DNA of 64,000 bases from an uncultured bacterium (GTDB lineage: Bacteria > Chloroflexota > UBA5177 > JANWHV01), in assembly GCA_963729625.1 (NCBI GenBank), contig CAVSOU010000010.1:768001-832000 (forward strand). The letters are read 5' to 3'. This document shows, piece by piece, positions 2,256-24,695 of the stretch. The notes under the pieces are model-generated. The model was not told where the DNA came from. It searched no databases and saw only the letters and a list, made by a program, of their open reading frames with translations. How positions within the stretch are numbered: the stretch's first letter is position 1; each line of letters opens with the position of its first letter. The translations under genes and the position numbers were made by a program.

Positions 2256-2271
2256 ATCAATGGAATTTGAT
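2256..2271. promoter_or_regulatory. ArsR/SmtB-type operator
   Basis: ATCAA-tggaat-TTGAT, a perfect 5-6-5 palindrome between divergent units. Confidence 0.75.
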
Positions 2272-2705: not shown

Positions 2706-2839
2706 GCGTGGGGGGTCAGGCTTGCGACTCCGACAGGCCCGGGCGCGGCACCACTCCGTGCCATGCGGCCCCCACAACGCAGGCCGTTGGGCCCTGGCGG
2801 GAGCGAACCAATCCGGCGTCTACTACAAGCGAAAGGTAC

Positions 2840-2855
2840 ATCAATGGCTATTGAA
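2840..2855. promoter_or_regulatory. ArsR-type operator overlapping the arsR start codon
   Basis: ATCAA-tggcta-TTGAA. Confidence 0.65.
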
Positions 2856-3206: not shown

Positions 3207-3252
3207 GGCGCGGCGGACGGGAGCCACTGTTCTTTTTTCGTGTGGGATATAC

Positions 3253-3268
3253 ATCAATAAGAGTTGAA
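3253..3268. promoter_or_regulatory. ArsR-type operator directly upstream of arsP
   Basis: ATCAA-taagag-TTGAA, 5 nt before ATG 3274. Confidence 0.7.
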
Positions 3269-3273
3269 CTAGC

Positions 3274-4377: not shown

Positions 4378-4437
4378 CACGCAATGCAGCCCGGAGCGGG
4401 CAGACTGAACCGTTGGCAGCAAAGAAGGAGAGACACC

Positions 4438-4683
4438 GTGGACGTCAAGATTCTGGGAACCGGCTGCTCGAACTGCAAGCGGCTGGAAGCACTGGTACGG
4501 GAGGTGGCCGCGACAGAACACCTTCAACCCGCGATCGACAAGGTGACCGACATCCCCGCCATTATGGCCTACGGCATCATGCACACACCCGGCCTGGTGA
4601 TCGACGGCGAGGTCAAGGCTAGCGGGCGTATTCCGTCAAAGGCTGAAGTCGCGGGCTGGCTGCTGGCCGCGGCTGCCAAGTAA
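4438..4683 (+). CDS. Small thioredoxin-like redox protein (MTH895/Thioredoxin_3 family)
   Basis: GTG start after AAGGAG; VKILGTGCSNCKRL, IMAYGIMHTPGLVIDGEVKASGRIP. Confidence 0.88.
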   Translation: MDVKILGTGCSNCKRLEALVREVAATEHLQPAIDKVTDIPAIMAYGIMHTPGLVIDGEVKASGRIPSKAEVAGWLLAAAAK

Positions 4684-4767
4684 GCAAGGGCCAGGAACGA
4701 GCGGCGGCGCGGCTCGAGGACCCGGAGGCACGCCGCCTACCCTCTTCCCTTGAAGGAGAAAACGTCC

Positions 4768-5500
4768 ATGTCAACCGTGATGACTGTGAAGAGCCCAGTT
4801 CTCGAGCCGCCTCGCCCTCCTGCTCAATCATGGCTTAGCCGCTTCCATACCGGCTGGTTCGCCGCCGTCATGGGCACGGTGGTGATCGGCGTGGTGGCCA
4901 ACACGAATCCCGGGAACCAGCCGGCACTGAAGGATGCCTGCGAGGCGCTCGCCGTGGCGATGGTCGCGCTGGCACGCTTCTTGCTTGTCGCCAGCTACGC
5001 GGCCTGGGGCATGGGCTTCTTCCTCTTCCTATTGACCGCCGCCCTGCTCTACGCGCGGTATGTCTACAACCCGCTGCCCAAGGCACCCATGGCGCCCGCC
5101 TTCGGGATTGGCCTGGGCCCGATCGGCGTGGGCGGCCTGACCCTGCTGCGCATGGCCCAGGCCTCAGGGGTCGTCTGGCACAGGGCGAACGTAACGGCCG
5201 TGAGCCAGCTCTCCTCGCTGGCCGCCACCGCCTTCCGGGGGCTTCGGCCTCTGGTGGCTGCCCATGGCACCCATGCTCCTGGCGCGCTACCGGCGTGCAG
5301 GCCGCCTACCGTACGGCGTCGGCTGGCGGGCCTTCGCGTTCCCGCTCGGCGCCTACACGACGTTGACGCGCGCGCTCTCACGTGCCTGGAACCTCGGTGT
5401 CATTGAGGTGCTCGGCGCCGCGTTCGCCTGCTTGCTCGCGGCATTCTGGCTCGTAGTCACCACCTACACGCTCGTGCATATGCGAACCGGCCTAGCCTGA
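4768..5500 (+). pseudogene. TDT/SLAC1-family transporter, frameshifted and apparently internally deleted
   Basis: GWFAAVMGT, IGLGPIG, then FAFPLGAY in another frame; shift in the G-run near 5237-5241; about 243 codons in total. Confidence 0.7.
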
Positions 5501-5689
5501 AGACGCTGATGTGCCGGCGTGAAGATCCGATGGGCGCGGGTCAATGAGCGGCGAACACGACCACGCCCACGGCATGACGCGCAACACGACGCCCCAATAG
5601 TTTCGCTATCCCTGCCGGCGCGTGCGTCTCGGTCGCGCGTTGAATCGTTGAGGTCGTCCTAGACTGAGGGTGTATCGCGCTGATATCAT

Positions 5690-5705
5690 TTCAATGTAGG
5701 TTGAT
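5690..5705. promoter_or_regulatory. ArsR-type operator upstream of the second arsR
   Basis: TTCAA-tgtagg-TTGAT in an AT-rich patch. Confidence 0.7.
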
Positions 5706-5742
5706 ATATATCTACGATGGTTGCGGAGAAAGAGGCAGGGGA

Positions 5743-6162
5743 ATGGCGAGGTCGGTGATCGCGGCTCGGTCCTCGGGATTGGAGACCGAGGCGCAACTTG
5801 GGGATGTGCTGCGGGTGCTCGCAGACCCCACACGGCTGCGAATCTTCCGCCTGCTGCGTGCGGGGGAAGCCTGTGTCTGCGAGATGGCGGCCGAGCTGAA
5901 GCTGGCTGAGAATCTCGTCTCCCATCACCTGCGTGCGCTCCGCGAGGTCGGACTGGTCCACGATCGGCGTGACCGCTCGGATGCGCGGTGGGTTTACTAT
6001 CACCTGAGCACGCCCGCGCTCGCTCGGATACGTGCAGAACTTGGCGCTCTGTTCGATCCGTTTACCCTCGGCGTGCGCACGCCGACCTGCGGTCCCGCCG
6101 CGCTCATTCAGGTAGGAGCGAGCGGCGCGGAGCGCGCGGCGGAGATGTGCTGCACGAGGTGA
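5743..6162 (+). CDS. arsR: ArsR metalloregulator with CVC site and C-terminal Cys-Cys
   Basis: LRVLADPTRLRIF, GEACVCEMA, NLVSHHLRALREVGLV, RWVYY, EMCCTR. Confidence 0.92.
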   Translation: MARSVIAARSSGLETEAQLGDVLRVLADPTRLRIFRLLRAGEACVCEMAAELKLAENLVSHHLRALREVGLVHDRRDRSDARWVYYHLSTPALARIRAELGALFDPFTLGVRTPTCGPAALIQVGASGAERAAEMCCTR

Positions 6163-6200
6163 ATTGGGGCATGGCGTGGCGATCTTGGTGTGTCCAGGAT

Positions 6201-6231
6201 ATCAATAGCTACTGATGCAATTGTAGTTGAG
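6201..6231. promoter_or_regulatory. Tandem degenerate ArsR-type operators upstream of arsDA-acr3
   Basis: ATCAA-tagcta-CTGAT followed by TGCAA-ttgtag-TTGAG. Confidence 0.55.
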
Positions 6232-6300
6232 CTATGAAGCCGTGAGTGCGAGGGATGTACCCGCAGCCGCGTGCAAAGTTGCCATGAAGGGAAGAGAACG

Positions 6301-6966
6301 ATGACCAAAATACAGGTGTATGACCCACCGATGTGTTGCTCGACGGGTGTCTGTGGCCCAAACCCGGATCCCGTGCTGCCCCGCTTCGCGTCCGACCTGC
6401 AGTGGCTCGTCGGCCAGGGGGTGGTCGTCGAGCGCTACAACCTTTCCCAGCAGCCGCAGGCCTTCGTCGCGAATCCGGTGGTCAAAGCCGCGCTGACTGA
6501 GCAAGGTAACCAGTGTCTCCCGCTCCTCTTGGTCGACGGCGATGTCGTGAGCCGCGGAACCTATCCTGTACGAGAGGCGCTCGCACGCTTCACCAGCCTT
6601 CAGGAAAAGGACCTGTCGAGCCTATATACGCCTGCGGTGGCCGAGCTTGTCGCCATCGGCGCCGCCATCGCCGCAAATTGCGAGCCCTGCTTCAGATTCC
6701 ACTTTGAACAGGCCCGCACGCTCGGGGTCTCCACCGAAGACCTGGCCAGCGCCGTGAAGACAGCGCAGACGGTCAAGGACACGCCCGCGCAGTCGATCTT
6801 CGATCTGGCGCAACGCTTCTTGCGACCGAAGGCGGCACCGCTAGGCTTGCCCGTGCTGCAAGCGAGCTGCTGCGCTTCAGATGATGCCTCGTCCTCCGAC
6901 AGCTCAGGGTGCTGCTGCGCTTCGGATGAGACCTCGTCGCCCAGCGGTTCAGGCTGCTGCGCATGA
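6301..6966 (+). CDS. arsD: ArsD As(III) metallochaperone fused to a CMD/AhpD-like domain and a Cys-rich tail
   Basis: IQVYDPPMCCSTGVCG, ERYNLSQQPQAF, LPLLLVDG; then ELVAIGAAIAANCEPCFRFH; tail SCC..GCCC..GCCA. Confidence 0.9.
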   Translation: MTKIQVYDPPMCCSTGVCGPNPDPVLPRFASDLQWLVGQGVVVERYNLSQQPQAFVANPVVKAALTEQGNQCLPLLLVDGDVVSRGTYPVREALARFTSLQEKDLSSLYTPAVAELVAIGAAIAANCEPCFRFHFEQARTLGVSTEDLASAVKTAQTVKDTPAQSIFDLAQRFLRPKAAPLGLPVLQASCCASDDASSSDSSGCCCASDETSSPSGSGCCA

Positions 6967-8754
6967 TCGGCGTGGCGCATTTTCTCGACCACGCTACGCG
7001 GATCCTATTCTTTACCGGCAAGGGTGGGGTCGGCAAGACCTCGCTGTCGTGTGCCACGGCCATCGCCCTCGCGCGGCGCGGTAAGCGGGTGCTCCTGGTG
7101 AGCACCGATCCGGCCTCGAATCTCGACGAAGTGCTCGGCGTCCGGCTGTCCGGCGTGCCAACAGACGTGCCGGGTATCTCCGGCCTCGCCGCGCTGAATA
7201 TCGACCCGGAAGCCGCGGCACGCGTCTACCGGGAGCGGGTTGTCGGTCCGTATCGCGGCGTGCTGCCGGAAGCGACGGTAGCCAGCATGGAGGAGCAGCT
7301 TTCCGGGGCCTGCACCGTGGAGATTCGCCGCCTTCGACGAGTTCACCATGTTGCTGGGGGACAAGCAAGCCACAACCGCTTTCGACTACCTCATCTTCGA
7401 CACGGCGCCGACCGGGCACACCCTGCGACTGCTGAAGCTGCCTGCGGCCTGGACCGGGTTCATCGCCGAGAACACCACGGGGACATCCTGCCTGGGACCG
7501 CTGTCCGGCCTGCAGGCACAGCAGGCCCTGTACGAGGCGAGCTTCCGGACCCTTGGCGACCCCACGACGACGACGCTCGTGCTGGTCAGTCGGCCGGAGA
7601 CCTCCGCGCTGGCCGAAGCGGAGCGCACGCGGGCCGAGCTTGCTGCCATGGGGCTCACGAGCCAGTACCTGTTCCTCAATGCCGTCTTCACGGCATCGGA
7701 CACCACCGACGCCGCCGCATGCGCGCTGGAGGCCCGTGGTCTCGATGCGCACCAAAGTATGCCGGAATTGCTCGCCGCCCTGCCGCGTGTGGAGGTACCG
7801 TTACTTCCCTTTGCGCCTATGGGCGTCGCCAATCTCGGGCGTGTCTTCGGCGCGGACCCATCCGCGTCCGATCCTGCGGCCCCGATGCAGAGGGAGGCGC
7901 CCGATGTCACGGGATCGCTCGCTAAGCTGATCGACGCTATCGAGCAGCTGGGTCACGGCGTGGTAATGACCATGGGCAAGGGCGGCGTGGGCAAGACAAC
8001 GGTCGCGGCGGCCATCGCCGTCGAGCTGGCGCATCGCGGCCATCGGGTGCATTTGAGCACCACGGACCCTGCCGCACACGTGGCCGCGACCGTCGATGGC
8101 GGCGTGACAGGGCTTCAGGTCAGCCGCATCGACCCGGCGGCCGAGACGCGGCGGTATGCCGAGGAAGTCCTGGCCAGGTCGGCCCCCTATCTGGACGAGC
8201 AGGGCAAGGCGGTGCTGGAAGAAGATCTGCGCTCACCCTGCACGGAGGAGATCGCGGTCTTTCGCGCCTTCGCGGACATCGTAGCCTCCGGAGAGGACGG
8301 CCTCGTCGTGCTGGACACGGCGCCGACCGGCCACACGCTCTTGCTGCTCGACGCGGCCGAAGCGTACCACCGGGAGGTACTGCGTTCGATGAGCGACACG
8401 ACGGACGCCGTGCGGAACCTCCTGCCGCGCCTGCGCGACCCAGAGTTCTCCCGCGTGCTGCTGGTCACGCTGCCTGAAGCGACGCCGGTGCACGAGGCGG
8501 GTTCGCTCCAGGAAGACCTGCTGCGCGCCGGCATCACCCCCTTTGCCTGGGTGATCAACCAGAGTTTCTCCGGCAACGGCTTCCGCGACCCCATCCTGGT
8601 CGCGCGCGGTGTGCGCGAGCTTCCCTTCATCGAGGAGGTCGGCGCGCACCTGGCGTCCCGGCTGGCCCTGGTGCCGTGGAACGCCGAGGCACCGGTGGGA
8701 CCGGTGCGGCTCAGACGACTCGCCCAGGCCGAGCATGAGAAAGTGAGTGTGTGA
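6963..8754 (+). pseudogene. arsA: Arsenite pump-driving ATPase ArsA with a single frameshift near 7325 (true lesion or sequencing error)
   Basis: Two GKGGVGKT Walker A motifs, two DTAPTGH motifs, LSGACTVEI and LRSPCTEEI; gagattcgccgccttc carries one extra base against EIAAF; ATGA overlap with the arsD stop. Confidence 0.9.
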
Positions 8755-10618: not shown

Positions 10619-11680
10619 TCAGGCCCGTATCACCTCCATGTTGTCGTAGTCTTTCCAGCGGTAGATCGAGGTGGAAGTGATCCACGCCAAGGCGAAGATG
10701 GCGAGAATCACGAAGCCCATCTTGTTCAGGTCGATGTTGTTGGCGATGAACTTCCAGAATGGCCCGCCCAGGTCCATCTCCTGACCGATTACCTGCAGCG
10801 CCTCCAAGGCGCCGATCATCAGGGCCACGAGCACCGAGACCAGCGTGATGTTCAGGTTGTAGTAGAGCTTGCGGATTGGCTTGACGAAGGCCCAACCATA
10901 CGCGCCGAGCATCAAAATCGAATCGGTGGTATCGATCACCGTCATCCCGGCCAGGAACAGCAGGGGAAAGACCATGATAAAGAACACCGGTAGGTGCGTG
11001 GAGCCGCTGGTGGCCACGATGCCTAGCAGGCCAACCTCGGTTGCGGTGTCAAAGCCGAGCCCGAACAGCACCCCTACCGGGTACATCTTCCAGGAGGAGT
11101 CGACCTGACGGATGATGGGACGGAACAACCGCGCCAGCAGACCCCGACTTTGCAGATAGTCCTCTACCTTCTGCTCCTCATAGACGCCGCCCTGGGCCAC
11201 CTGCCGCCACATCTTGTAGATGTCGATCAGGACCAGGATGTTGATCGCGGCAATGAGGAGCAGGAACAGCGCCGAGACCGCGGTGCCAATCACCCCGATG
11301 TGGTTGGCAAGGTTGCCGCTGTTGACGTTGTCCCGTACCACCTTGAGCGAGAGAGCCAGCAGGAAGGAGATCACCAGCACGATGGTGGAATGGCCCAGGG
11401 AGAAGAAGACGCCCACCCCAACCGGTCGCTTGCCGTCCTGCATCAGCTTGCGCGTCACGTTGTCTATGGCGGCGATGTGGTCGGCGTCCACGGCATGGCG
11501 CAGGCCAAAGGTGTAGGCAGTGACGGCGGAGGCCAGAAAGAACGAGTATTGTGCCGAGGCCACGAAGGCAACCGCCCAGGCCGCCACATTCAGCAGCGCC
11601 AGGCCGCTGTAAAGCAACACGACCCGTCGCTTCGCGTCGGGCGGCAGGGCAGTAAAGACAGTGGCAAAGTTCTTGAGCAT
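10619..11680 (-). CDS. HoxN/HupN/NixA (NiCoT) nickel/cobalt transporter
   Basis: GLRHAVDADHIAAID, FSLGHSTIV, LFGLGFDTATE. Confidence 0.93.
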   Translation of the reverse strand: MLKNFATVFTALPPDAKRRVVLLYSGLALLNVAAWAVAFVASAQYSFFLASAVTAYTFGLRHAVDADHIAAIDNVTRKLMQDGKRPVGVGVFFSLGHSTIVLVISFLLALSLKVVRDNVNSGNLANHIGVIGTAVSALFLLLIAAINILVLIDIYKMWRQVAQGGVYEEQKVEDYLQSRGLLARLFRPIIRQVDSSWKMYPVGVLFGLGFDTATEVGLLGIVATSGSTHLPVFFIMVFPLLFLAGMTVIDTTDSILMLGAYGWAFVKPIRKLYYNLNITLVSVLVALMIGALEALQVIGQEMDLGGPFWKFIANNIDLNKMGFVILAIFALAWITSTSIYRWKDYDNMEVIRA

Positions 11681-11806
11681 GGATTCGATACCCTTCTGTT
11701 TCTTTGAAACGTCGCATGTGCCAAGCTATGCCTGGCTCGATGGGTGGCTGTTCCGACGTTGGCTCCACGAGTCCGCATGGTGCGTCCACCGTATCACCTT
11801 CTGGTT

Positions 11807-13150
11807 TCACCCGGTCGGTGTTTTCGCGCGCGTCCAGGACGTCCCGGCAGGTGTGTCCGCGATCACATAGCCCAGTCGCTCGAGCTGCTCGCGCACCCGA
11901 TCGGCCTCGGCCCACTGGCGACTGTCCCGGACAACGGCACGAGTCGAGACCAGCAGGTCCACCAGCAGCTGCGATTCCTGCCGCGCCTTCTCCGCGCCGT
12001 CTATGGCTTCAAGGAGCCGAACCAGGCCGGGGAGCGTTCCCTGCAGTGCCTGCACCGCCAGCTCAGCCCGGCCTGGCAGGGACTGCTCAAATCCGGAGCC
12101 GGCCAGCAAACTCAAAGCGATCAGGCCGTGCACGGCCTCGGGGATATCGCGCCTGGCAAAGGCTTGCTCCACGCGCACACGCGTGGCGAGAATATCGGCA
12201 TCCTGCGCGGCTTCGCCGTTCTCACGTGGCGGAACGACCATGGCCTGGTGGCTCACTGGGACTGCCTCTTCATCCGTGTGTGGGTGATGAAGAGCGAGAT
12301 GGTCACCGCGTGCGTAGACAGATTGGCGACCCGCAGTACGCAGAGTGACCCGGCCGGACCCAAGCACCTCGGCGTCCCGGTCAGGTCGAATGAACAGTGC
12401 GCTGTATTCGTCCAGGCCGAGGACGAGCGCGTCGGCGGGTAGCTGCTGCTCGAGCGTCTCGAAACGCGCTGCTCCCATGTAGCAGTAGCGCGTGTCGTGT
12501 TCGCCGCTCGCATTGTTCCAATGGGGCACCACAGCGAGCCGACGTTGGCCGGCAGCACCCAGCAGGTTCAACCCCTCAATCCACTCCGGGTCGTATCCGG
12601 CCTTGTAGATCTCATAGACGGGTATGGCCCAGGTCCCCACGCTGAGCGCGGCCGCGCTTGCGAACACCAGGAGCGCTCCCGCGCGCCAGCGTGCGACGAC
12701 CGCCTGCCAGACCGGGCTCTCGCGCAACACACGGATGGCGTAACTCGGGCTTCCTGGCCCGGCCAGAATGTAATTGGCCTGGCCGATCGCGCGCAGCGCA
12801 GCGCCCACGTCTTCGGCGCTTTCGCGACCGGAACGGTAGCGCGCAACTTCCAAGCTCAATCCGAAGTTGCGCCGAAAATACTCGACTGCCTTGTGGTCGA
12901 TGGCATCAATGTTAGACTCGAAGCCGGCCGGCGTATCGAGGAACACCGGCCGTACCGGGCTTTCGAGTCGTGCCATGAGCGCGCGGTGCGTCTCGGCCAT
13001 CGCATCGGCCAATTCACCGGACCCAATCAGGGCGATGGCACCGGAACCCTGCGTGAGTCGCGTGTCCGTGACGACCGGCAGGCGAGAGAGCTCGGGCGCG
13101 CCGTCACCAACCTCCGAAGCGCCCTCGAGATGCGGATGCTTGGTCACCAC
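11807..13150 (-). CDS. Peptidase S51/class I GATase-like domain fused to a CysRS anticodon-binding-like C-terminal domain
   Basis: LIGSGE, AGPGSPSY, FASAAA, VVPHWNN, LGLDE; C-terminus RAVVRDSRQWAEADRVREQLERLGYVIADTPAGTSW. Confidence 0.8.
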   Translation of the reverse strand: MVTKHPHLEGASEVGDGAPELSRLPVVTDTRLTQGSGAIALIGSGELADAMAETHRALMARLESPVRPVFLDTPAGFESNIDAIDHKAVEYFRRNFGLSLEVARYRSGRESAEDVGAALRAIGQANYILAGPGSPSYAIRVLRESPVWQAVVARWRAGALLVFASAAALSVGTWAIPVYEIYKAGYDPEWIEGLNLLGAAGQRRLAVVPHWNNASGEHDTRYCYMGAARFETLEQQLPADALVLGLDEYSALFIRPDRDAEVLGSGRVTLRTAGRQSVYARGDHLALHHPHTDEEAVPVSHQAMVVPPRENGEAAQDADILATRVRVEQAFARRDIPEAVHGLIALSLLAGSGFEQSLPGRAELAVQALQGTLPGLVRLLEAIDGAEKARQESQLLVDLLVSTRAVVRDSRQWAEADRVREQLERLGYVIADTPAGTSWTRAKTPTG

Positions 13151-13312
13151 TCACATATCCTTCTGAATCGTCAACCTAGCGCGATGCGAGCGCGGCCGTG
13201 TCATTGCCAGGCGATGGCACGGCTGCTCGCTGAAAGAGTACCTGCGCTGCTCGGCGCCACATCCGGAGGCGCCGTAGGCGGGCTGCCAGCGAAGCTAGCC
13301 CGGCTCAGGCTG

Positions 13313-15469
13313 CTAGGCCGCCTCACCTTCCGCCACGAGGTCATCTTCCTCAGACAGATCCGCGGCGCCACGCGACGGCTGCACCCGCAGGAGCCGCGCC
13401 GGAAGGGACGGCAGCCACCAGTTCCACTGCCCAAACAGCGAGACCAGGGCGGGAACCAGCAGCATCCGAACCACGGTGGCGTCGAGTAGGACACCGGCTG
13501 CCAGGCCGGTGGCGAAGATCTTGATCGTCGTTTCGGGGCCGGAGCCGAGGGCGGCGAAAGCCAGGAAAAGAATCAGGGCGGCGCTCGTTACCAGCCTGCC
13601 CGTAGTGCCTACACCCCGCACCACCGCTCCGTTGGTCCGGCCGGTGGCGTTGTACTCCTCCCGCACCCGGGCCAGGATGAACACCTCGTAGTCCATGGAG
13701 ATGCCGAAGAGGAAGGCGAAGACCATCAGGGGGACGAAGCTGGTGATCGATCCGGTGGCCTGAATACCCCAGATGGCCTGTGAGCCGAATCCATCCTGCC
13801 AGACCAGCACCAGGATGCCCCAGGAGGCCGCCACCGAAACCAGCACAAGCACGACGGCCTTCAGGGGCAGAAGGATCGAGCGGAAGGCACGTGCAAGCAG
13901 GACGAACGTGACGAGCACAATCAAGCCGATCATCAGAGGGAAGCTGCCGTAGACCGCGGAGATGAAGTCGGCGTTCTCCGCACCGGCACCGCCAATGCTC
14001 ACGCTGCTGGATTCAGCGCGCGCCACCTGGCGCATCCGATCCAGCGTGCTCCGTCCGGCGTTGGAGCTGCCGTCCGCGGTTGGCAGGGCCACAACGAGCG
14101 AGGTGCCGCCTTGGCGCCACGCCGGACCTCCCGGCGCCACGGCGCCGCGGACCCCTGATGTCTGGCCAACCCTGAGAGCCACCGTCTGTGGGTTGGCGTT
14201 CGCTACCAGGATCTCGAAAGGATTGAGAGCGCCAGGCCCGATGCCGGCCTGTTCCAGGGCGGACAGACCCTGATAGGCCTCGCCTGCCTTGGCCAGTGAA
14301 TTCGCTTTCGGGTCGCCGATGTTGAGCGAGAGGGCGGGAATGGCCAGCGCGGCCAGGACACCGATCGCCAGCCCCGCCGCCAGCCACCGGCGGCGCACCA
14401 CCAGTGTGCCCCAGGCCGTCCAGAAGCGGTTCGTGCGCGGTTTGCTGCGCCGCGGCCAGTCGATGCGCGGTCCTACCGTCTTCAATACAACCGGCAGCAG
14501 GGTGGTGGCCACCAGCACGCTGACGAGCGGGATCAGCATGCCGCCGTAGCCGACGCTGCGCAGGAAGGGCAAGGGCAGTACCACCAGAGCCAGCAGGCCG
14601 ACTGCCACCGTCGTGCCGCTGAAGATCACGGCCGTCCCGGCAGTCTCCATGGCCCGCTGGACTGCCGCCGTGTTGTCGAGCCCACCAGCGCGCTCTTCGC
14701 GCCACCGCATCACGATGAGCAGCGAGTAGTCTATGGCGATGCCCAGCCCGATCAGCGCGACGAGGAATTCGACGATGAAAGACACATCGGTGACTCTGGT
14801 CAGACCCCAGATGAGCAGGAAGGTGGAGGGAATGGCGACGATTGCCATGACGATGGGCACAAGGGCCAGGAACGAGCCGAAGACGACGGCCAGCACGATC
14901 AGCGCCCCGATACCGCCCAGCATCGCCTCCACAAGCACGCTTGGGCCGCCGCCACCGCCACCGCTTTCCAGCGCGCTCGTGCCGGTGACGGCGAAGTGCG
15001 CGCCGGCAACGGTGAAGCGCGACAGTATGTGGCGGACGGTAGGTAGCGTCGCATCGGGCGCGAAGCCGACCGGCTGCGGTCCGTAGATGAGGCCGAAGGT
15101 GGTGTGCCCATCGGCGGAGACAAACAGCCTGCTGCCGGTCGACGCGTAGGAAACCACACGCGTACGACGTAACGCGGCCTGCACGGCGTCGAAGGCGGCG
15201 CTCAGCTGAGCGCGCACGCCCGGGCTGTCGACTGTCACGGAGGACGGCAATGTGATGACCGGGACAAGCGGAGGGGTCTGGCCGCCATTGTCGTATGTCT
15301 GCAGGATGCGTTGGTTCGTCTGATACCCTGCCCCGCCGGGGACGGAGAACTGGTAGGATAGCGCGTTGTTGGCCGACTGCAACGACAGGATCGCGGCGAC
15401 CGCGACGAGCAGCCAGAATATGGCGACAAACCTGCTGTGCGTGAGCATCCAGCGTGTGAATATGGCCAC
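13313..15469 (-). CDS. MMPL-family (RND) transporter
   Basis: GLGIAIDYSLLIVMRWREE, FGISMDYEVFILARVREE, LLDATVVRMLLVP; GTG start after AAGGAG. Confidence 0.92.
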   Translation of the reverse strand: MAIFTRWMLTHSRFVAIFWLLVAVAAILSLQSANNALSYQFSVPGGAGYQTNQRILQTYDNGGQTPPLVPVITLPSSVTVDSPGVRAQLSAAFDAVQAALRRTRVVSYASTGSRLFVSADGHTTFGLIYGPQPVGFAPDATLPTVRHILSRFTVAGAHFAVTGTSALESGGGGGGPSVLVEAMLGGIGALIVLAVVFGSFLALVPIVMAIVAIPSTFLLIWGLTRVTDVSFIVEFLVALIGLGIAIDYSLLIVMRWREERAGGLDNTAAVQRAMETAGTAVIFSGTTVAVGLLALVVLPLPFLRSVGYGGMLIPLVSVLVATTLLPVVLKTVGPRIDWPRRSKPRTNRFWTAWGTLVVRRRWLAAGLAIGVLAALAIPALSLNIGDPKANSLAKAGEAYQGLSALEQAGIGPGALNPFEILVANANPQTVALRVGQTSGVRGAVAPGGPAWRQGGTSLVVALPTADGSSNAGRSTLDRMRQVARAESSSVSIGGAGAENADFISAVYGSFPLMIGLIVLVTFVLLARAFRSILLPLKAVVLVLVSVAASWGILVLVWQDGFGSQAIWGIQATGSITSFVPLMVFAFLFGISMDYEVFILARVREEYNATGRTNGAVVRGVGTTGRLVTSAALILFLAFAALGSGPETTIKIFATGLAAGVLLDATVVRMLLVPALVSLFGQWNWWLPSLPARLLRVQPSRGAADLSEEDDLVAEGEAA

Positions 15470-15593
15470 GTGAGCCCTTCTCCTTTGTGATCTGAGTCCG
15501 TAATTGGGCCGGCCTGACGCGCTTCGTGCCGCGTTGCCTTGTACGCGACGGTAGCAAGTGCCCGTGACGGCCGCCATCAACATTTCTAGGATC

Positions 15594-15622
15594 ATGATAG
15601 TTGACTAAGTTTTATTAGTCAA
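15594..15622 (-). promoter_or_regulatory. Sigma70-type promoter overlapped by a palindromic operator
   Basis: Minus strand TTGACT-17 nt-TATCAT; perfect-arm palindrome TTGACTAA-gtttta-TTAGTCAA at 15601-15622. Confidence 0.8.
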
Positions 15623-15766: not shown

Positions 15767-17239
15767 TCAGTTGGGTCTGCGAGGGGGCGAGGCAGTGCGA
15801 GATGTCGATGCCACAGTGCGGGCCGCGACGAACATGGCCATGGCGCGCCGGCGTCGCTCGCCGTGATCGACTATTGGCGCCGGATACGTCTTGCCAAGGA
15901 CGAAGCCGAGACGCGCGGACTCGGCCGAGGGGAGCGTCCAGGGCGAGTGCACGTGCTCGTCCGGCAGGGCAGCCAGCTCGGGCACGTAGCGGCGCACGTA
16001 GGCGCCGCCCGGATCGTAGCGCCGTCCCTGCGTCACCGGGTTGAAGACGCGGAAGTACGGCTGCGCGTCCATGCCCACCGACGCGCTCCACTGCCAGCCT
16101 CCCACGTTGGCGGGCTTGTCGGCATCGATCAGATGTTGCCAGAAGTACGCTTCTCCCCAACGCCAATCGATCAGCAGATCTTTGCACAGGAAGCTTGCCG
16201 TGATCATGCGCACACGGTTGTGCATCCAGCCCTCGGCGTTGAGCTGGCGCATTCCCGCATCGACGATCGGATAGCCGGTCAGGCCGTGACACCAGGCAGC
16301 AAAGAGATCGCCGGAGTTCTCGTAGGGCATCGCGTCGTAGCGCCTCTCGAATGCCTGAGCAATCACCTCCGGAAAGTGGTACATCCAGGCGAAGTAGAAT
16401 TCGCGCCAGGCCAGCTCGCTCTCCCAGGCATCGGGTCCCTTCTGACGATCCTCCGGGGCGTCGTGCCGTGCGCGCTCCGCGGCGGCGAATGCCGCGCGTG
16501 GCGAGATTGTGCCGAAGCGCAGGTGAGCTGAGAGATGGCTGGTGCCGAGCTGAGCCGGCAGGTTGCGTGCCGTGGCGTAGGCGTGGATGGGAGCGTGCGG
16601 GGCACAGGTGAACTGTTCAAGCTGGCGCAATCCCTCGTCCTCGCCACCATGCTGGGTGCCGGCCGCGCGTGTCCAACCCAGCTCTTCCGCCGTCGGGATC
16701 GCATGGCCCTGGAGCGCGGGCGTAGAGAGCGGTCGTTCCAACGCGGCAAACGGCAACGCATGGGGCCGTGCCGACCAGGCCCGCCGGTAGGGCGTGTAGA
16801 CCCGGTAGGGCTGCCGGTCCTGCGTAAGCAGCTCATCGGGCTCCACGAGCACGAGATCCTTGAAATCGCGGTACAGGAAGCCGGCCGCCTCCACTGCACG
16901 GCGCACGCGCGCGTCGCGCCGCATACCGGGAGCAACGTAGTCGCGGTTGACGTAGACGCCTTCGGCGCCGCTCTCCCGCAGCGTGGCCAGGAGAACCTGT
17001 GCTGGGTCACCGCGACGTACCAGCAGATAACTGCCGTGGTGGCGCAGATTGGTATCGAGCACGCGCAGGCTGTCCAGCAGGAAGGTGATGCGTGGGCCGT
17101 TAGCGTGGGGCGCGGTGATCAGTGAGGGGTCGAGGATGAACAGCGGAATCACCCGCGCCGCATCACGCACCGCGTGGTACAGCGCCGCATGATCGCGCGT
17201 GCGGAGGTCGCGCCGGAACCAGCAGACGAGGGTGCGCAT
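15767..17239 (-). CDS. phrB: Deoxyribodipyrimidine photolyase
   Basis: WFRRDLR..DH, TSHLSAHLRFGTIS, ELAWREFY, TGYPIVDAGMRQL, WMHNRVRM, NVGGWQW. Confidence 0.95.
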   Translation of the reverse strand: MRTLVCWFRRDLRTRDHAALYHAVRDAARVIPLFILDPSLITAPHANGPRITFLLDSLRVLDTNLRHHGSYLLVRRGDPAQVLLATLRESGAEGVYVNRDYVAPGMRRDARVRRAVEAAGFLYRDFKDLVLVEPDELLTQDRQPYRVYTPYRRAWSARPHALPFAALERPLSTPALQGHAIPTAEELGWTRAAGTQHGGEDEGLRQLEQFTCAPHAPIHAYATARNLPAQLGTSHLSAHLRFGTISPRAAFAAAERARHDAPEDRQKGPDAWESELAWREFYFAWMYHFPEVIAQAFERRYDAMPYENSGDLFAAWCHGLTGYPIVDAGMRQLNAEGWMHNRVRMITASFLCKDLLIDWRWGEAYFWQHLIDADKPANVGGWQWSASVGMDAQPYFRVFNPVTQGRRYDPGGAYVRRYVPELAALPDEHVHSPWTLPSAESARLGFVLGKTYPAPIVDHGERRRRAMAMFVAARTVASTSRTASPPRRPN

Positions 17240-17244
17240 CGGCC

Positions 17245-18732
17245 CTATGGCTGTCCGAGTTCCAGGCGGATGCGCTGTGCTACGAGTCGAGCACCAATGA
17301 TCACCATCGGTACGCCGCCGCCCGGCACCGTTCCGGCACCCACGAAGTACAGGCGATCCAGGGCCCTGGCCTTGTTGTGGGGCCGCATGTAGCCGACCTG
17401 GAAGAAGTCATGCGCCAGGCCGAACGTGGCGCCGTGGCGCAGGTGATACGATTCGGCCCAGTCGGCCGGCGTGACCATCTTTTCCACCACGATGTGCTGC
17501 CGTATGTCCGGCGCCGCCAGCGACTCGACCTTGTCGAGCACCAGCTCCCGGTAGCGCGGCCCCTCAGTAGCCCAGTCCATGCCCTCGTAGATGCGCGGCA
17601 CGGGCACGAGGACATAGACACAGTCCGCACCAGCGGGCGCCATGGCCGGATCCGTGCGGGTGACGCAGTGCACGTAGAACGAAGGGTCCGAAGGCAGGCG
17701 ATGCTGTTTGAAGATTTCGACGAAGTTCCTGTCGCTGTCTTGGGCGAGGAACACATTGTGGTGGAACAGGTCGTCATAGACCTTGTCGACGCCGAGGTAG
17801 AGCATGAAAGCCGAACATCCGTAGCGCAGGCGATCCAGCCGCCCGCCCGCGTACGGCGCGCGGAACTGAGGTGGCAGCAGAGATCGGTAACTGTAGGGGA
17901 GGTCCGCGTTGCACACGACGACGTCTGCTGCCATCTCGGTGCCGTTCGTCAAGCGCACTCCGGCGGCGCGGCCATTTCGGACGATGATCTCCTCGGCCTC
18001 ACACGCAAGGCGGACTTCTCCGCCCAATTCCGTGAGAACCCGTACGAGCGCGCGCGGAATGCTGTACATACCGCCCATGGGGTACCAGATGCCGTCGTGG
18101 ATCTCGGTATAGGGCAGTAACGAGTAGATCGCCGGCGCGTCGGCCGGAGCCAGGCCAAGATACATAGTCTGGAAGGTGAAGGCGACACGTAGCCGCGGGT
18201 CCTTGAAGTACCGGGCGGCGAACTTGGCGAGCGACGTCAAGGCGTTGAGACGCAGCACATAGTAGAGGTTCAAAGGCGTGAAGAATTCCGCCCAACTGCG
18301 AAAGTTGCGATCGGTGAAGCGCTGCCGCGACACACGGTACTTGTATTCGGCGTCGGCGAGAAAGCGCCGATATTGGTCGCCTGCTCCTGGCTCGATGGCC
18401 TCGAGCTGGCGGCAGAGGGCCGCCTCATCACTCGACAGATCCAGGTGCGTGCCGTCGCCAAAGCGGATCCGGTAGTTGAAGGGCAGCCGGACCAGCTCCA
18501 GGTACTCGCGGATGTCCCTGCCGACCGACCTGAACAGCTCGCGCAATGTGTCCACCATCAGAAGAATCGAGGGACCTGTATCGAAGGTGAAGCCGGCCTC
18601 CGCGTAGGTGTTGCAGCGTCCGCCTGGTGCTGCATTCTTCTCCAGCACGGTGACGTCGTAACCCTGGTGCTGCAGTCGAACCGACGTTGCCAGGCCCCCG
18701 ATCCCAGCGCCAATCACAATCGCGCGTTTCAT
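17245..18732 (-). CDS. crtI: Phytoene desaturase
   Basis: IGAGIGG, GFTFDTGPS, WYPMGGM, YFVGAGTVPGGGVPMV. Confidence 0.92.
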   Translation of the reverse strand: MKRAIVIGAGIGGLATSVRLQHQGYDVTVLEKNAAPGGRCNTYAEAGFTFDTGPSILLMVDTLRELFRSVGRDIREYLELVRLPFNYRIRFGDGTHLDLSSDEAALCRQLEAIEPGAGDQYRRFLADAEYKYRVSRQRFTDRNFRSWAEFFTPLNLYYVLRLNALTSLAKFAARYFKDPRLRVAFTFQTMYLGLAPADAPAIYSLLPYTEIHDGIWYPMGGMYSIPRALVRVLTELGGEVRLACEAEEIIVRNGRAAGVRLTNGTEMAADVVVCNADLPYSYRSLLPPQFRAPYAGGRLDRLRYGCSAFMLYLGVDKVYDDLFHHNVFLAQDSDRNFVEIFKQHRLPSDPSFYVHCVTRTDPAMAPAGADCVYVLVPVPRIYEGMDWATEGPRYRELVLDKVESLAAPDIRQHIVVEKMVTPADWAESYHLRHGATFGLAHDFFQVGYMRPHNKARALDRLYFVGAGTVPGGGVPMVIIGARLVAQRIRLELGQP

Positions 18733-18783
18733 TGCCGTCCTGCCTCTTCTCCGGCAGATGCCGGAATCTCGCCAAACACGTGC

Positions 18784-19128
18784 TCAGCCAGGATCGTCGT
18801 TGCCCGCGTGCTGTCGCTTCAACACATAGTGCCGAAGGAGCAGTACGGTCTGCACGACCATCAGGTCGGTAAGCAGAAAGAAAACAGTCTCCTCGATCGG
18901 CACATCGGCAACCGCGAATCCGACGATGTGGTCGGCGTGCAGCACCCAAATGCCGGAATGAATCGCCACGCCGTCCGCGCACGAGAGATATACGGTCGGC
19001 AGGCTCGCGGCAACCGCAATCAGGCCCAGCCGCGGCAACAGCACCTGCCGGCCAACCAACCAGTGCCCGATTAGCACAGGCGCCGCCCAGCCCAGCTCGA
19101 AGATGAGATACGTTGCGTGACCAAACAC
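18784..19128 (-). CDS. Lycopene cyclase domain protein (heterodimeric CrtYc/Yd type)
   Basis: Small hydrophobic protein; ADGVAIHSGIW, VPIEETVFF (PxEE); beside crtI. Confidence 0.85.
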   Translation of the reverse strand: MFGHATYLIFELGWAAPVLIGHWLVGRQVLLPRLGLIAVAASLPTVYLSCADGVAIHSGIWVLHADHIVGFAVADVPIEETVFFLLTDLMVVQTVLLLRHYVLKRQHAGNDDPG

Positions 19129-19131
19129 AGG

Positions 19132-19446
19132 CTACCGCATCCTTGTAGTCTGCCGCTGCAGCAGCCAGATCGTGAAGAGGCCCGTGAGCACAACCTGCAG
19201 CACGTAGAACACGTACTCTTCTACCGGTACGACGCCCAAGACGACGCCGACGACATGGGCGGGATCGAACGACCACACGCCGTTCCGTATGAGCGCGTTA
19301 TCCCACGGCGCGGTGTAGGCCAGGGCCACCAGCGTCGTGAATGCCGCCGTGGGCCACGCCCAGCCCGGCACGCATCCGCGCAGTGCAACGAGCAGACCGC
19401 CAATGGGCAGAACAAGAAACAAGGCCAGGAAGGCGAAATAGCTCAT
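19132..19446 (-). CDS. Lycopene cyclase domain protein (heterodimeric CrtYc/Yd type)
   Basis: YTAPWDNALIRNGVW, VPVEEYVFY. Confidence 0.88.
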   Translation of the reverse strand: MSYFAFLALFLVLPIGGLLVALRGCVPGWAWPTAAFTTLVALAYTAPWDNALIRNGVWSFDPAHVVGVVLGVVPVEEYVFYVLQVVLTGLFTIWLLQRQTTRMR

Positions 19447-19527
19447 GCTCTGGGCTTCTATTCAAGAAATGACGTTGCGGCACGTCACCATCACCGTAAG
19501 CCGGCATCTCAGTATGCCCAAGCCAAT

Positions 19528-20268
19528 CTACCTCCCTGCGCGACGTATGGCTTTCAGCATGATGTGGTAGGAAACGCGGCCACAGCGAAGCCTATCCTCC
19601 GCGATGTAGGCCCCATAATACAGATAGGCCAGGCGATCGTACAGCGCCTGGCTGCGGAGCAGGCCCTTGCCGAGCGACAGCATCGCCAGGTTCAGCAACT
19701 CGACCAGGCCCAAGCCGGTGCGCTCGACGTGCTCCACGAGGAACTGCGGCGAGAGCAGGCGTCGCAGGTCGGCTTCGGCGTAGTGACGATGAAAGGGATA
19801 TCCTCCCTCAATCACCTCCTCTGGAGGATGGGATCCGCCGCCGGCAAGAAAATCCCACACATTCAGCGAATCCAGCCACTGCAAGACACCCTTGTGCGGG
19901 ACGCTGAGGACCAGCGTGCCGCCCGGGCGCAGCACCCTGGCGATCTCGGCGAGCACCGGTTGCTCGCGTCGCACGTGTTCCAGCACGTCGAGCAGGAGCA
20001 CGGCGTCGAAATACGCATCCGCAAACGGCAGGGATTCGGCAGAAGCAACCTGAAAGGGAATCTGCGGGTGACGGCGCCGCGCACGCTCAATGAAGGTGGC
20101 CGACGCGTCCACGCCATACACTTCGTGCCGGCGCGCGATCATGGCGGTGCCGTAGCCGAAGGCACAGCCGAGATCGAGCACGCGGCCACCCTCCGGCAAA
20201 AGCCGCAGAGCCCGCTGCCAGCGTGCCATGCGCCTAACCTCCTCCGCCTGCCACAGCGGTGTATGCAT
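19528..20268 (-). CDS. Class I SAM-dependent methyltransferase
   Basis: RVLDLGCAFG, LPFADAYFDAV, DVLEHV, RVLRPGG. Confidence 0.88.
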   Translation of the reverse strand: MHTPLWQAEEVRRMARWQRALRLLPEGGRVLDLGCAFGYGTAMIARRHEVYGVDASATFIERARRRHPQIPFQVASAESLPFADAYFDAVLLLDVLEHVRREQPVLAEIARVLRPGGTLVLSVPHKGVLQWLDSLNVWDFLAGGGSHPPEEVIEGGYPFHRHYAEADLRRLLSPQFLVEHVERTGLGLVELLNLAMLSLGKGLLRSQALYDRLAYLYYGAYIAEDRLRCGRVSYHIMLKAIRRAGR

Positions 20269-21168
20269 GCGCGGTCTCTGTCGCGTCTCCGACCGGTGCT
20301 CGGGCGAGCCTGCTTCAGGTGAGAAGTTCCGTCTTCGGTCGCGCGATCCCCTGATGCGCTCTCAAGCCCCGGCGCGTCGTACGCACCGCGAAGCCGCGGC
20401 GGCAGGAGCGCGGCGATCCGGCACATGGCACAAGACCTCGCCCACGCGTCAAGCGCCCCGCCGGCAGGCGCGGATAGGAGGTCAGGCGTCCACGGCGCGC
20501 CAAACCGCGCCTGCAGAGTCCCTCCGGCTTCCCACACGGCGGCCGGCACGACCGCGACGCCGGAGCGATGCAGCCGCAGGAGCAGCGCGCCGGTACCGGG
20601 GAGCGCTTCGCGCAGGCCGGCGGTGGTGCCCGCCGTTCCCTCGGGGAACAGCACGATCGGCTCACCCCGGCCACGGGGCGCCGGCAGGGCAAGCCGAAAG
20701 AGCTGCCGGAGCGCCGCGGCCCGGCCGGCGACCGCGCGCGGATCGGTGGGCAGCGAGACCATGCTCCAGATACGAGCGACACGTCCCAGCAGGAGTCCGG
20801 ACCCGGGTATCACTCGCCCGCGCACACGTATGTCACCAATCACGGCAAAGTGCACGCGGGCGTGATCCGGCCGGGCACGACGGATCTCTCGCGCCAGTAT
20901 GCCGCCGGCAAAGCCGATCCACAGGCCGCGCCGCTGGTAGTGGTTGGCGACGATCACCATGGCACCGGCCGGAGGAATATGCTCTCGGCTGTGGACAATG
21001 CGGCTGGCGCGGCCACGCGGCGAGCACGCGCTCGGCATCCTCCTCAACCGGCCTGCGGGCGCCGTCGAACAGACTGCGCGTCAAGTCCAGCCACAGCCAA
21101 GACGGGAGCGTGTACTGGCGCGTCCCTCCCAGGCGATAGCCGCGTCGAAGCGTCGGTGCGATGGCCAT
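20139..21168 (-). pseudogene. PlsC-superfamily acyltransferase (candidate carotenoid-glycoside acyltransferase), frameshift near 21003
   Basis: Overlapping ORFs 20833-21168 and 20139-21047; VIVANHY, IVLFPEGT, VVPAAV. Confidence 0.7.
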
Positions 21169-21210
21169 GTCAGCGAACCTTTACTGTCATCGTGCAACTG
21201 GCTCCAGCAA

Positions 21211-22353: not shown

Positions 22354-22365
22354 CGTCAGTGAGCC

Positions 22366-24684: not shown

Positions 24685-24695
24685 GGATCGTAGAG

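Follow-up and report, generated by a model that had tools for sequence, protein, structure and literature searches.

An uncultured Chloroflexota bacterium (assembly GCA_963729625.1) carries, on contig CAVSOU010000010.1, a gene for a two-part enzyme that is the subject of this analysis. The gene lies on the (-) strand of the window, that is, the whole stretch of 64,000 nucleotides analysed (contig positions 768,001 to 832,000). As judged from its sequence, the enzyme joins a serine-peptidase-type catalytic domain to the anticodon-reading part of cysteinyl-tRNA synthetase (CysRS), and it probably works on tRNA-Cys and not on ordinary peptides. The function that we tentatively favour is that of a trans-acting deacylase which would dock on tRNA-Cys and clear aberrant aminoacyl-tRNA-Cys. 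The open reading frame (ORF) and its parts are located in the window as follows:

11807..13150 (-): whole ORF with a GTG start, 447 aa plus stop
13158..13163 (-): Shine-Dalgarno-like motif GAAGGA, 7 nt 5' of the GTG, read from the sequence
13043..13150 (-): N-terminal extension, residues 1-36, predicted to be disordered (predicted local distance difference test, pLDDT, <50 at residues 1-5 and 7-33)
12281..13042 (-): S51-like (cyanophycinase/PepE-fold) hydrolase domain, residues 37-290, from the 6nqc match, Foldseek and VIA
12656..12658 (-): codon of Ser165 (FASAAA), the predicted nucleophile, from conservation, the 6nqc alignment and the strand-Ser-helix position
12521..12523 (-): codon of His210 (VVPHWNN), from conservation and alignment to 6nqc 'IPHFN'
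12407..12409 (-): codon of Glu248 (GLDE), from conservation and alignment to 6nqc 'GIDE'
12218..12280 (-): variable linker, residues 291-311, with pLDDT <50 at 301-311 and gap-rich, poorly conserved columns
11924..12217 (-): helical region, residues 312-409, with four long helices and homology to the CysRS helical bundle at profile level
11834..11953 (-): CysS_C anticodon-binding alpha/beta domain, residues 400-439, from PF23493 and 1u0b_B, holding R404, R408, W413, D417, R420, D432 and W439

Modeling of the protein using AlphaFold2 with a 42-sequence alignment gave a mean pLDDT of 85.6 and a predicted TM-score (pTM) of 0.65. The model consists of five parts, namely a disordered segment (1-36), an alpha/beta domain (37-290), a disordered linker (291-311), a group of helices (312-409, with individual helices at 312-332, 336-355, 359-382 and 386-409) and a helix with a beta-hairpin (413-441). 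The N-terminal extension is covered by the closest relatives only, and most homologues begin near residue 30-36.

The C-terminal part was assigned to CysRS by several comparisons. CysS_C (PF23493) was the only match in the Pfam scan (residues 400-439, 25.1 bits, cut-off 23), and the NCBIfam scan matched the C-terminal ends of two cysS models. The model TIGR00435 (cysteinyl-tRNA synthetase) gave 24.5 bits against a cut-off of 340 and covered the C-terminal 54 residues only. In a phmmer search against PDB sequences, four CysRS chains aligned at their C-termini with residues 387-442 (E 4e-5 to 1.7; 8qhp, 1li5 and 3tqo at 4e-5 to 1e-3). Structural comparison using VIA matched model residues 386-442 to residues 406-461 of 1u0b_B, E. 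coli CysRS in its tRNA complex (Z 8.4, root-mean-square deviation 2.4 A, 56 residues, 34% identity). Positions 292-416 of the family profile corresponded to residues 358-487 of 8qhp (E 5.1e-16) and 331-460 of E. coli CysRS (E 2.2e-13), the latter of which we take to be the helical bundle plus the alpha/beta anticodon domain. The helical region 312-385 structurally matches only designed helical repeats, and its homology to CysRS rests on the profile search. A match of the C-terminus to CysRS had been claimed in a preliminary description of this DNA made without database searches. That claim stood, while its two details needed correction: the module is about 130 aa long by the family profile and not 50 aa, and its last part is not purely helical but an alpha/beta domain, with two strands at 428-441. 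The same description had reported no HIGH or KMSKS motif; none was found in the protein, Pfam gave no tRNA-synt_1e match, and the protein falls outside the CysRS catalytic-domain family while it possesses a CysS_C domain with the residues that read G34. By these comparisons, the anticodon-binding module of CysRS is present in full in the protein, and the catalytic core of the synthetase is missing entirely.

The residues of CysRS that contact the anticodon have been described for the E. coli enzyme. According to PMC12684709, which cites Hauenstein 2004, G34 of tRNA-Cys is read by Arg427 and Asp436 and stacks on Trp432, and a water network runs via Asp436 and Arg423 at the CysRS-G34 contact. 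In PMC13449415, Arg427, Trp432, Asp436 and Arg439 were used to re-aim the CysRS anticodon domain. The ungapped phmmer alignment places residues R404, R408, W413, D417, R420, D432 and W439 of our protein opposite E. coli R423, R427, W432, D436, R439, D451 and W458. Conservation was counted in an alignment of 151 sequences, made up of the query and the 150 representatives listed from a library clustered at 50% identity; the C-terminal domain is aligned in 137 of these 151, the remainder being short or truncated. The counts are as follows:

E. coli R423 = R404: R in 139/140 representatives
E. coli R427 = R408: R in 138/140
E. coli W432 = W413: aromatic in 137/139 (W 81, F 37, Y 19)
E. coli D436 = D417: D in 136/140
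E. coli R439 = R420: R in 136/139
E. coli D451 = D432: D in 135/137
E. coli W458 = W439: W in 130/138

Identity of the family members to the window protein is as low as 30% (30-40% across many phyla). Near-invariance of the G34-contact equivalents at such low identity is what one would expect of an RNA contact that still functions, and it is the main reason for us to assume that the protein docks on tRNA-Cys, which we regard as fairly probable. The aim at tRNA-Cys, put forward in the preliminary description, gains support from the retention of these equivalents in 136-139 of 139-140 representatives.

The same residues bear on one alternative, an ordinary S51-type exopeptidase in which the tail derived from CysRS no longer binds RNA and instead serves oligomerisation, stability or the binding of another ligand. 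The sources name the relatives only 'hypothetical protein' or 'cyanophycinase-like exopeptidase', no tRNA-Cys gene lies near the family members in the loci scanned, and in one locus (L012) the CysS_C tail is replaced by an alpha/beta-hydrolase domain, all of which agrees with such an enzyme. In addition, 'CysS/YqeB C-terminal domain-containing protein', which we take to be an NCBI name, would mean that the domain occurs in non-synthetase contexts. However, exactly the surface residues that read G34 in CysRS are near-invariant across many phyla, the whole two-part anticodon module is kept, and, as described below, the family shows enrichment next to an aminoacyl-tRNA-dependent transferase as well as co-occurrence with it, and no enrichment with the ATP-dependent MshC-like route. 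We consider an ordinary exopeptidase quite improbable.

The catalytic domain was identified by structure and by one sequence match. Residues 37-270 matched the PDB chain 6nqc_A, 'cyanophycinase-like exopeptidase' (phmmer, E 8.4e-11). Foldseek ranked 6nqc first (5.8e-14), followed by PepE and cyanophycinase, with E values ranging from 5.8e-14 to 3e-10. VIA alignments, each spanning 210-236 residues, gave Z 27.5 for 6nqc, 24.8-25.9 for cyanophycinase and pseudo-CphB (3en0, 7uqw, 7uqv) and 20.2-21.8 for PepE, so that VIA and Foldseek both place the domain in the cyanophycinase/PepE fold. Ser165 lies between strand 160-164 and helix 166-169 of the model, in the nucleophile-elbow position, and S165, H210 and E248 align with the SAG, PH and DE motifs of 6nqc (Ser in 6nqc 'CSAGA'). 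The S51-like pattern that the preliminary description had read from FASAAA, VVPHWNN and GLDE agrees with the fold, and both of its domain calls held. The predicted triad is conserved in the family (Ser in 150/151, His in 150/150, Glu in 141/150), which speaks for catalytic activity and against the role of a passive adaptor. Family members also share the invariant motif PVYE[IV]YK and, as an insertion that 6nqc lacks, N-x-[ES]-G-x-HDTR[FY]C[YF]MG. Pfam Peptidase_S51 (PF03575) did not match the protein at E<=1; the relative P0135 reached 19.7 bits against the cut-off of 23.9, and PF03575 is precomputed on 6/120 listed relatives. The NCBIfam cyanophycinase model TIGR02069 gave 22.3 bits against a cut-off of 126.6. 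Since no curated S51 sequence model reaches its cut-off, the domain is called 'S51-like' and not a filed member of the family, and this label rests on the fold and on the 6nqc match.

The two parts suggest a mechanism of three steps. The C-terminal module would bind the GCA anticodon through its Arg/Arg/aromatic/Asp/Arg set, the same as serves to read G34 in E. coli CysRS. With His210 and Glu248 activating it, Ser165 would then attack the A76 aminoacyl ester and give aminoacyl-Ser165 and free tRNA, as the fold and the triad suggest. Finally, water would resolve the intermediate, so that oxidised or non-cognate groups are cleared from tRNA-Cys; this is the least certain step. The active site of S51 enzymes normally takes a single N-terminal residue onto its serine, and an aminoacyl-tRNA offers such a residue on a better leaving group, so the same chemistry is proposed here. 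The preference of S51 enzymes for an aspartyl residue at P1 and the isosteric relation of cysteine sulfinate to aspartate could point to oxidised cysteine as the substrate. A precedent for a serine-bound aminoacyl-enzyme formed from aminoacyl-tRNA is given by the cyclodipeptide synthases (CDPSs), according to PMC12945691.

To evaluate the genomic context of the family, the 80 best loci were compared, using ORFs of at least 90 aa taken from the first start after a stop. Neighbouring products were clustered by all-against-all BLASTP (E<=1e-8, at least 50% coverage, single linkage). The counts are lower bounds, as many loci stop at contig ends. The recurrent neighbours lie mostly downstream of the gene for the S51-CysS_C protein and on the same strand:

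Acetyltransf_6/FemAB_like GNAT: 22/80 loci, on the same strand in 21
GT4 glycosyltransferase: 20/80 loci, best NCBIfam match mycothiol MshA (TIGR03449, E 5.2e-92, 308.8 bits, full length, cut-off of 462.5 not reached)
GFO/IDH/MocA oxidoreductases: 17/80 loci, resembling inositol dehydrogenases
PIG-L deacetylase: 13/80 loci, best match BshB1 (108.8 bits, cut-off 182.5), followed by BshB2, Mca and MshB

The 22 GNAT loci belong to 19 Desulfobacterota-type metagenome-assembled genomes (MAGs), one Nitrospinaceae, one Nitrospirae and one Deferrisomatales. The tightest operon (L046) contains the family gene at 2232-3479, GNAT at 3479-4492, GT4 at 4492-5790 and PIG-L at 5794-6489, with a stop/start overlap of the first two genes. 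A prediction of the complex between the first two L046 products (score 0.00, mark 0.32) speaks neither for nor against their pairing. The Fem-like GNAT had no sequence match in the PDB at E<=1. Its model (pLDDT 93.2, pTM 0.89) was found in a fold search to be closest to the aminoacyl-tRNA-dependent Sbb17/Sba18, FemA/FemX and MprF (TMq 0.50-0.61). Sbb17/Sba18, an 'aminoacyl-tRNA-dependent peptide synthase' solved with the amino sugar streptothrisamine, gave TMq 0.58-0.61, and the tandem GNATs that use acetyl-CoA were lower (0.35-0.47). The related Orf11 is a Gly-tRNA-dependent enzyme that acylates streptothrisamine, as described in PMC12945691. By analogy, the GT4 enzyme of the module would add N-acetylglucosamine to an acceptor, PIG-L would free the amine, and the Fem-like enzyme would add an aminoacyl group from aminoacyl-tRNA. 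As the neighbouring S51-CysS_C protein carries a tRNA-Cys module, this amino acid may be cysteine. Thus, the module would make an aminoacyl-glucosamine, probably cysteinyl-glucosamine, from Cys-tRNA-Cys, and the proposed deacylase would police or tune its tRNA pool.

Two further features were observed beside the family genes. Several operons encode, directly upstream of the family gene, a cyanophycinase-like S51 paralogue of only 228-283 aa that lacks the tRNA module (L031:5954-6637, L035:7746-8456, L044:6713-7561 and L014:7007-7771); the L031 copy has a cyanophycinase-like match at E 1.1e-19. The paralogue and the S51-CysS_C protein could form a heteromer or perform a second hydrolytic step. 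In three Acidimicrobiia-type loci (L048 2813-3063, L067 2373-2679 and L071 9293-9531), a tRNA-Glu / tRNA-Asp / tRNA-Phe cluster without tRNA-Cys follows the family member within about 100 nt.

The paralogue and the module can also be accommodated by a tRNA-gated amidase or peptidase, in which the S51 domain cleaves a small amide, for example releasing cysteine from a cysteinyl-glucosamine thiol or trimming a dipeptide, and the CysRS module turns the hydrolase on when it senses uncharged tRNA-Cys as a sign that cysteine is short. Single N-terminal residues or dipeptides are the products of S51 enzymes (titles of 1fy2, 6a4r and 7uqw), and a genomic link to the putative aminoacyl-glucosamine pathway exists. 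The occurrence of the short S51 paralogue in the four loci named above and the ability of the GNAT>GT4>PIG-L module to work without the S51-CysS_C protein are also in line with this function. However, it demands an allosteric link across a disordered and variable linker, and the gene occurs in 10/56 Chloroflexota genomes in which neither a Fem-like nor an MshC-like route was found, eight of these having a weak GNAT paralogue only. To our knowledge, no peptidase has been described in which an anticodon-binding domain acts as the sensor, and such a gated hydrolase appears distinctly unlikely.

The co-occurrence of the family with the Fem-like GNAT was then counted in whole genomes. The GNAT profile was built from 18 operon loci and the copy of the window's own genome, so that a match in these genomes is built in. 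A strong GNAT orthologue (E<=1e-55) was found in 48/80 genomes with the best relatives (41/50 and 7/30 in two batches). In an even sample of 151 genomes from the phylum of one operon-bearing genome (G024), the S51-CysS_C gene occurs in 19 and GNAT in 27 genomes (both 16, the former only 3, GNAT only 11, neither 121), so that GNAT is present in 16/19 genomes with the gene versus 11/132 others; in 7/19 the two are located on one contig at most 3.1 kb apart. An even sample of 201 Chloroflexota genomes, all but one (G000) at least 90% complete, contained the gene in 56 genomes and strong GNAT in 64, with GNAT in 27/56 genomes that have the gene versus 37/145 others. The Chloroflexota tallies include G076, G208 and G211, three genomes flagged as unpublished that carry none of our claims, and dropping them shifts any cell by at most 2.

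An MshC-like gene (E<=1e-104, a cut at which only Corynebacterium matched among 14 control genomes) was found in 96/201 Chloroflexota genomes, far more than we had expected. It encodes a CysRS paralogue without the anticodon-binding domain, with 353-410 bits to TIGR03447 (cut-off 485). In the 201 genomes, the Fem-like GNAT and the MshC-like gene all but exclude one another (both 8, GNAT only 56, MshC-like only 88, neither 49), which suggests that they are two alternative routes for one step, tRNA-dependent and ATP-dependent, respectively. If so, the Fem-like enzyme and not the S51-CysS_C protein would be the ligating enzyme. The gene for the latter occurs in 22/56 genomes with GNAT only, 5/8 with both, 19/88 with the MshC-like gene only and 10/49 with neither, and it is not enriched with the MshC-like gene (24/56 genomes that have it versus 72/145 others). 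It is enriched with the tRNA-dependent route and is not bound to it.

These distributions bear on the main competitor of a deacylase, a Cys-tRNA-Cys-dependent cysteinyl transferase. Its first two steps would be the same, and cysteinyl-Ser165 would be resolved by an amine, for example a glucosamine conjugate from GT4 and PIG-L, so that the enzyme is a functional analogue of MshC/BshC or adds a further residue beside the Fem-like enzyme. Several observations favour it. The gene is the first of tight operons with an MshA-like GT4, a BshB1-like PIG-L and GNAT, which is the layout of the four enzymes of mycothiol synthesis with the S51-CysS_C protein in the MshC slot. Five operon-bearing genomes contained no BshC (0/5) and no MshC above cut-off. 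The second CysRS-like gene of G024 encodes PALP and a complete CysRS, that is, a tRNA charger and not an MshC-type ligase. In addition, the family protein P0192 is fused to a GT2 glycosyltransferase, and the same fold class includes acyl-transferases such as MetA, homoserine O-succinyltransferase. On the other hand, GNAT>GT4>PIG-L is complete without the S51-CysS_C gene, as a three-gene operon, in small Chloroflexota genomes that are at least 98% complete (L112, L113 and L115). Five genomes with the GNAT module and without the gene have a single CysRS and neither an MshC-like paralogue nor BshC. It is the Fem-like GNAT, and not the S51-CysS_C gene, whose distribution is complementary to that of the MshC-like gene, and one genome (G040) has, besides the operon, a second CysRS-like gene for a 410-aa core without the anticodon-binding domain. 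Moreover, 29/56 Chloroflexota genomes with the S51-CysS_C gene are without GNAT, the family is present in Actinomycetota, which make mycothiol with MshC, and the characterised S51 enzymes are all hydrolases. We consider the transferase rather unlikely.

Autonomy of the module and the anti-correlation of GNAT with the MshC-like gene suggest that GNAT is the ligating enzyme and the S51-CysS_C protein an accessory, which fits a hydrolase better than a pathway transferase. Hydrolysis is favoured because all known S51 enzymes are hydrolases, the module runs without the S51-CysS_C protein, and the family occurs without the module. A strict rule by which this protein replaces MshC/BshC was tried and rejected: the five module-only genomes have neither an MshC-like gene nor BshC, there is no enrichment, and in five of five Chloroflexota genomes with the gene and without GNAT an MshC-like gene was found (367-405 bits, where canonical CysRS genes give 237-337).

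Two observations were made on the CysRS genes and operons of these genomes. In G024 (L110:4795-7107, +), a 770-aa protein consists of a PALP (cysteine-synthase-like) domain fused to a complete CysRS with catalytic domain, DALR_2 and CysS_C; open frames of this size (765-775 aa) occur in 4/5 operon-bearing genomes checked, as the second CysRS of Desulfobacterota-type genomes. In small Chloroflexota genomes (L112 5145-9798 and L113 8817-13438), the GNAT>GT4>PIG-L operon adjoins a tRNA-Thr/Tyr/Thr cluster and the gene for elongation factor EF-Tu.

A bolder version of cysteinyl transfer was also considered. The S51-CysS_C family would be a new structural class, in which an anticodon-steered serine-hydrolase fold forms a cysteinyl-enzyme from Cys-tRNA-Cys, and with GNAT, GT4 and the deacetylase it would mark a tRNA-dependent route to a cysteinyl-glucosamine thiol that replaces the MshC step in a non-orthologous way in Chloroflexota, Desulfobacterota, Nitrospirota and relatives. 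This proposal rests on the near mutual exclusion of the Fem-like GNAT and the MshC-like gene in the 201 Chloroflexota genomes, and we judge it unlikely; if it holds, it would define a new class of enzyme.

A number of points weigh against the deacylase that we prefer. From sequence, hydrolysis and transfer are indistinguishable. The pTM of 0.65 leaves the arrangement of the domains in the model open and, with it, the reach of Ser165 to A76. The conserved Arg and Asp residues could in part be structural, holding a small domain together. CysRS is not known to need editing, and the aberrant substrate is hypothetical. A scan of the 80 loci, of the window and of six further loci revealed no tRNA-Cys gene. 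The Fem-like module is absent from 32/80 genomes with the best relatives, among them all Actinomycetota genomes of the 30-genome batch, and the Chloroflexota genomes that have the gene and no GNAT count here as well. Finally, the odds ratios of the co-occurrence with GNAT, about 59 in the phylum of G024 and 2.7 in Chloroflexota, overstate the independent evidence, as the genomes are related to one another; the counts also come from MAGs.

If docking on tRNA-Cys is true, the protein would be the first enzyme with a peptidase fold to be directed at a tRNA by the anticodon module of a synthetase, and it would represent either a new quality control for the one aminoacyl-tRNA with an easily oxidised side chain or a new way of drawing cysteine from translation. 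Its genomic partners point to a tRNA-dependent aminoacyl-glucosamine pathway of the mycothiol/bacillithiol type, and with such a pathway the four-gene operon would make the thiol question directly testable. We know of no major thiol described for the phyla bearing these partners.

The genome of the window contains a full-length CysRS on contig C8 (444 bits), separate from the S51-CysS_C gene, and a single tRNA-Cys(GCA) at C10:704008. A Fem-like GNAT gene and a PIG-L gene overlap by 4 nt at C10:607502-609297 (L101 9503-11298), 170 kb from the S51-CysS_C gene. Their products are similar to those of the L046 operon (GNAT 33% identity, E 6.5e-40; PIG-L 44%, E 1e-51). The pair is divergent from a gene for an S-adenosylmethionine-dependent methyltransferase (L101 8538-9500) and adjoins genes for MTAP-like, AdoHcy (S-adenosylhomocysteine) hydrolase and MetK proteins; it is a candidate tRNA-dependent aminoacyl-glucosamine (thiol?) module, maybe with a methylation step. 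In this genome, which is 87% complete, searches for BshC and for an MshA-like GT4 above cut-off found neither. A CysRS/MshC-like core without the anticodon domain (model positions 1-371) is split over two overlapping frames on contig C9 (L002 1008-2199, -) and is either a frameshifted pseudogene or an assembly error. On contig C11 (L004 about 685-1749, +), there is a second S51-CysS_C copy, 60% identical over its intact part. Several stops or frame changes interrupt the first 120 residues of this copy, which is thus a probable pseudogene.

In the window, the gene is located between those of an MMPL transporter (13313-15595) and a NicO transporter (10619-11680), all on the same strand. Farther on one side, a photolyase, a CrtI-like oxidase, AhpC, a MerR-B12 regulator and phytoene synthase are encoded, and an ars operon lies on the other. 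The former belong to a set that looks light-responsive (15767-26730) and comprises photolyase, CrtI-like amine oxidase, GT2, a sulfite-oxidase-like molybdoenzyme, AhpC, a MerR regulator with a B12-binding domain (CarH/LitR type) and phytoene synthase. The preliminary description had placed the gene in a photo-oxidative stress unit. This was not supported: NicO, MMPL, photolyase, CrtI-like, AhpC, CarH-like and other neighbours each lie near relatives in only 0-2 of the 80 loci, so the window neighbours were rejected as a functional unit, and the conserved context is the FemX-like / MshA-like / BshB-like set. The scan for promoters and terminators was uninformative (2 promoter-like sites versus 0.9 expected and 4 terminator-like sites versus 3.0 expected); no such site was found between the MMPL, S51-CysS_C and NicO genes except a weak hairpin on the + strand (11778-11796). 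Two oddities were noted elsewhere in the window. The arsA ATPase of the ars operon (6963-8754, +) extends over two overlapping ORFs in different frames (6963-7925 and 7348-8754), maybe due to a frameshift or a sequencing error. At 2439-3206 (+), a weak MntP-like membrane segment (residues 36-86) precedes an ArsR-type helix-turn-helix (160-205), where an over-extended start or an unusual membrane-anchored ArsR is possible.

The combination of S51 and CysS_C proved to be widespread, with the C-terminal domain in 137/151 sequences. Relatives of similar length amount to 1353 proteins at E<=1e-3 among 8000 candidates scored. A library clustered at 50% identity contains 1505 representatives with E<=1e-3, of which 358 reach E<=1e-30. 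Among contigs of one genome per species, at least 596 species genomes encode a relative (596 among 600 pattern matches listed). The listed matches belong to Chloroflexota, Desulfobacterota-type 'delta proteobacteria', Actinomycetota (Acidimicrobiia, Ilumatobacteraceae, Nanopelagicales and Bifidobacterium), Dormibacterota, Nitrospirae, Nitrospinaceae, Aminicenantes and Syntrophomonadaceae. The ESM Atlas contains the same architecture under automatic names, e.g., 'Cysteinyl-tRNA synthetase-like family protein'. Thus, a large family (at least 596 species genomes, 56/201 Chloroflexota and 19/151 in a second phylum) carries automatic names only. Two variants were seen, each a single case in which a merged gene call is possible: P0192 (593 aa) consists of S51, CysS_C and a C-terminal GT2 glycosyltransferase, and L012:8019-10013 encodes an S51 domain followed by an S33-like alpha/beta hydrolase in place of the CysS_C tail.

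A literature search revealed no description of the S51-CysRS-module architecture or of a tRNA-dependent thiol pathway, with thin coverage of subscription journals. The review PMC12945691 divides, in its section headings, the enzymes that use aminoacyl-tRNA into aminoacyl-tRNA synthetase-like, GNAT-fold, CDPS and PEARL classes, with no hydrolase-fold class, and the words 'serine hydrolase', 'peptidase' and 'anticodon' do not occur in its text. It also reports that TglB uses Cys-tRNA-Cys and that Orf11 aminoacylates an amino sugar. The aminoacyl-tRNA-dependent transferases (FemX/Orf11(Sba18)/MprF, CDPSs and PEARLs) share with the S51-CysS_C protein the use, proposed in its case, of aminoacyl-tRNA outside translation, but their fold differs.

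A comparison with the S51 peptidases, namely cyanophycinase (3en0, 7uqw), PepE (1fy2, 6a4r) and the uncharacterised acI-B1 actinobacterial protein 6nqc, indicated the same fold and the Ser-His-Glu motifs in the same order, aligned with those of 6nqc. However, the S51-CysS_C protein has invariant motifs of its own and adds a C-terminal synthetase-derived module of 150 aa that is present in no characterised S51 enzyme. With E. coli CysRS (1li5/1u0b), it shares a homologous helical bundle and C-terminal alpha/beta domain in which the G34-contact residues are retained; having no Rossmann catalytic domain and no HIGH/KMSKS, it is predicted to be unable to activate cysteine or charge tRNA. The trans-acting deacylases YbaK/ProXp, AlaX and DTD do the job that is proposed here, the hydrolysis of the aminoacyl ester on a specific tRNA. 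They derive from synthetase editing domains and not from a peptidase fold, and we know of none to which a synthetase has contributed a comparable anticodon-binding module. In the Pfam and NCBIfam scans at E<=1, the S51-CysS_C protein matched no YbaK/ProX, AlaX or DTD editing-domain family. MshC is likewise derived from CysRS and likewise tied to a pathway with an MshA-like GT4 and a PIG-L deacetylase, a tie that for the S51-CysS_C protein consists of gene context only. Neither MshC nor BshC was listed in the Pfam and NCBIfam scans, so that only a functional analogue is possible. The two proteins are mirror images, as MshC keeps the catalytic core without the anticodon domain (TIGR03447, 411 positions), the S51-CysS_C protein keeps only the anticodon module, and their catalytic parts are not homologous. 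All these comparisons allow us to describe the protein as a putative synthetase-derived, tRNA-directed accessory enzyme, distinct from CysRS, MshC, BshC and the known editing factors.

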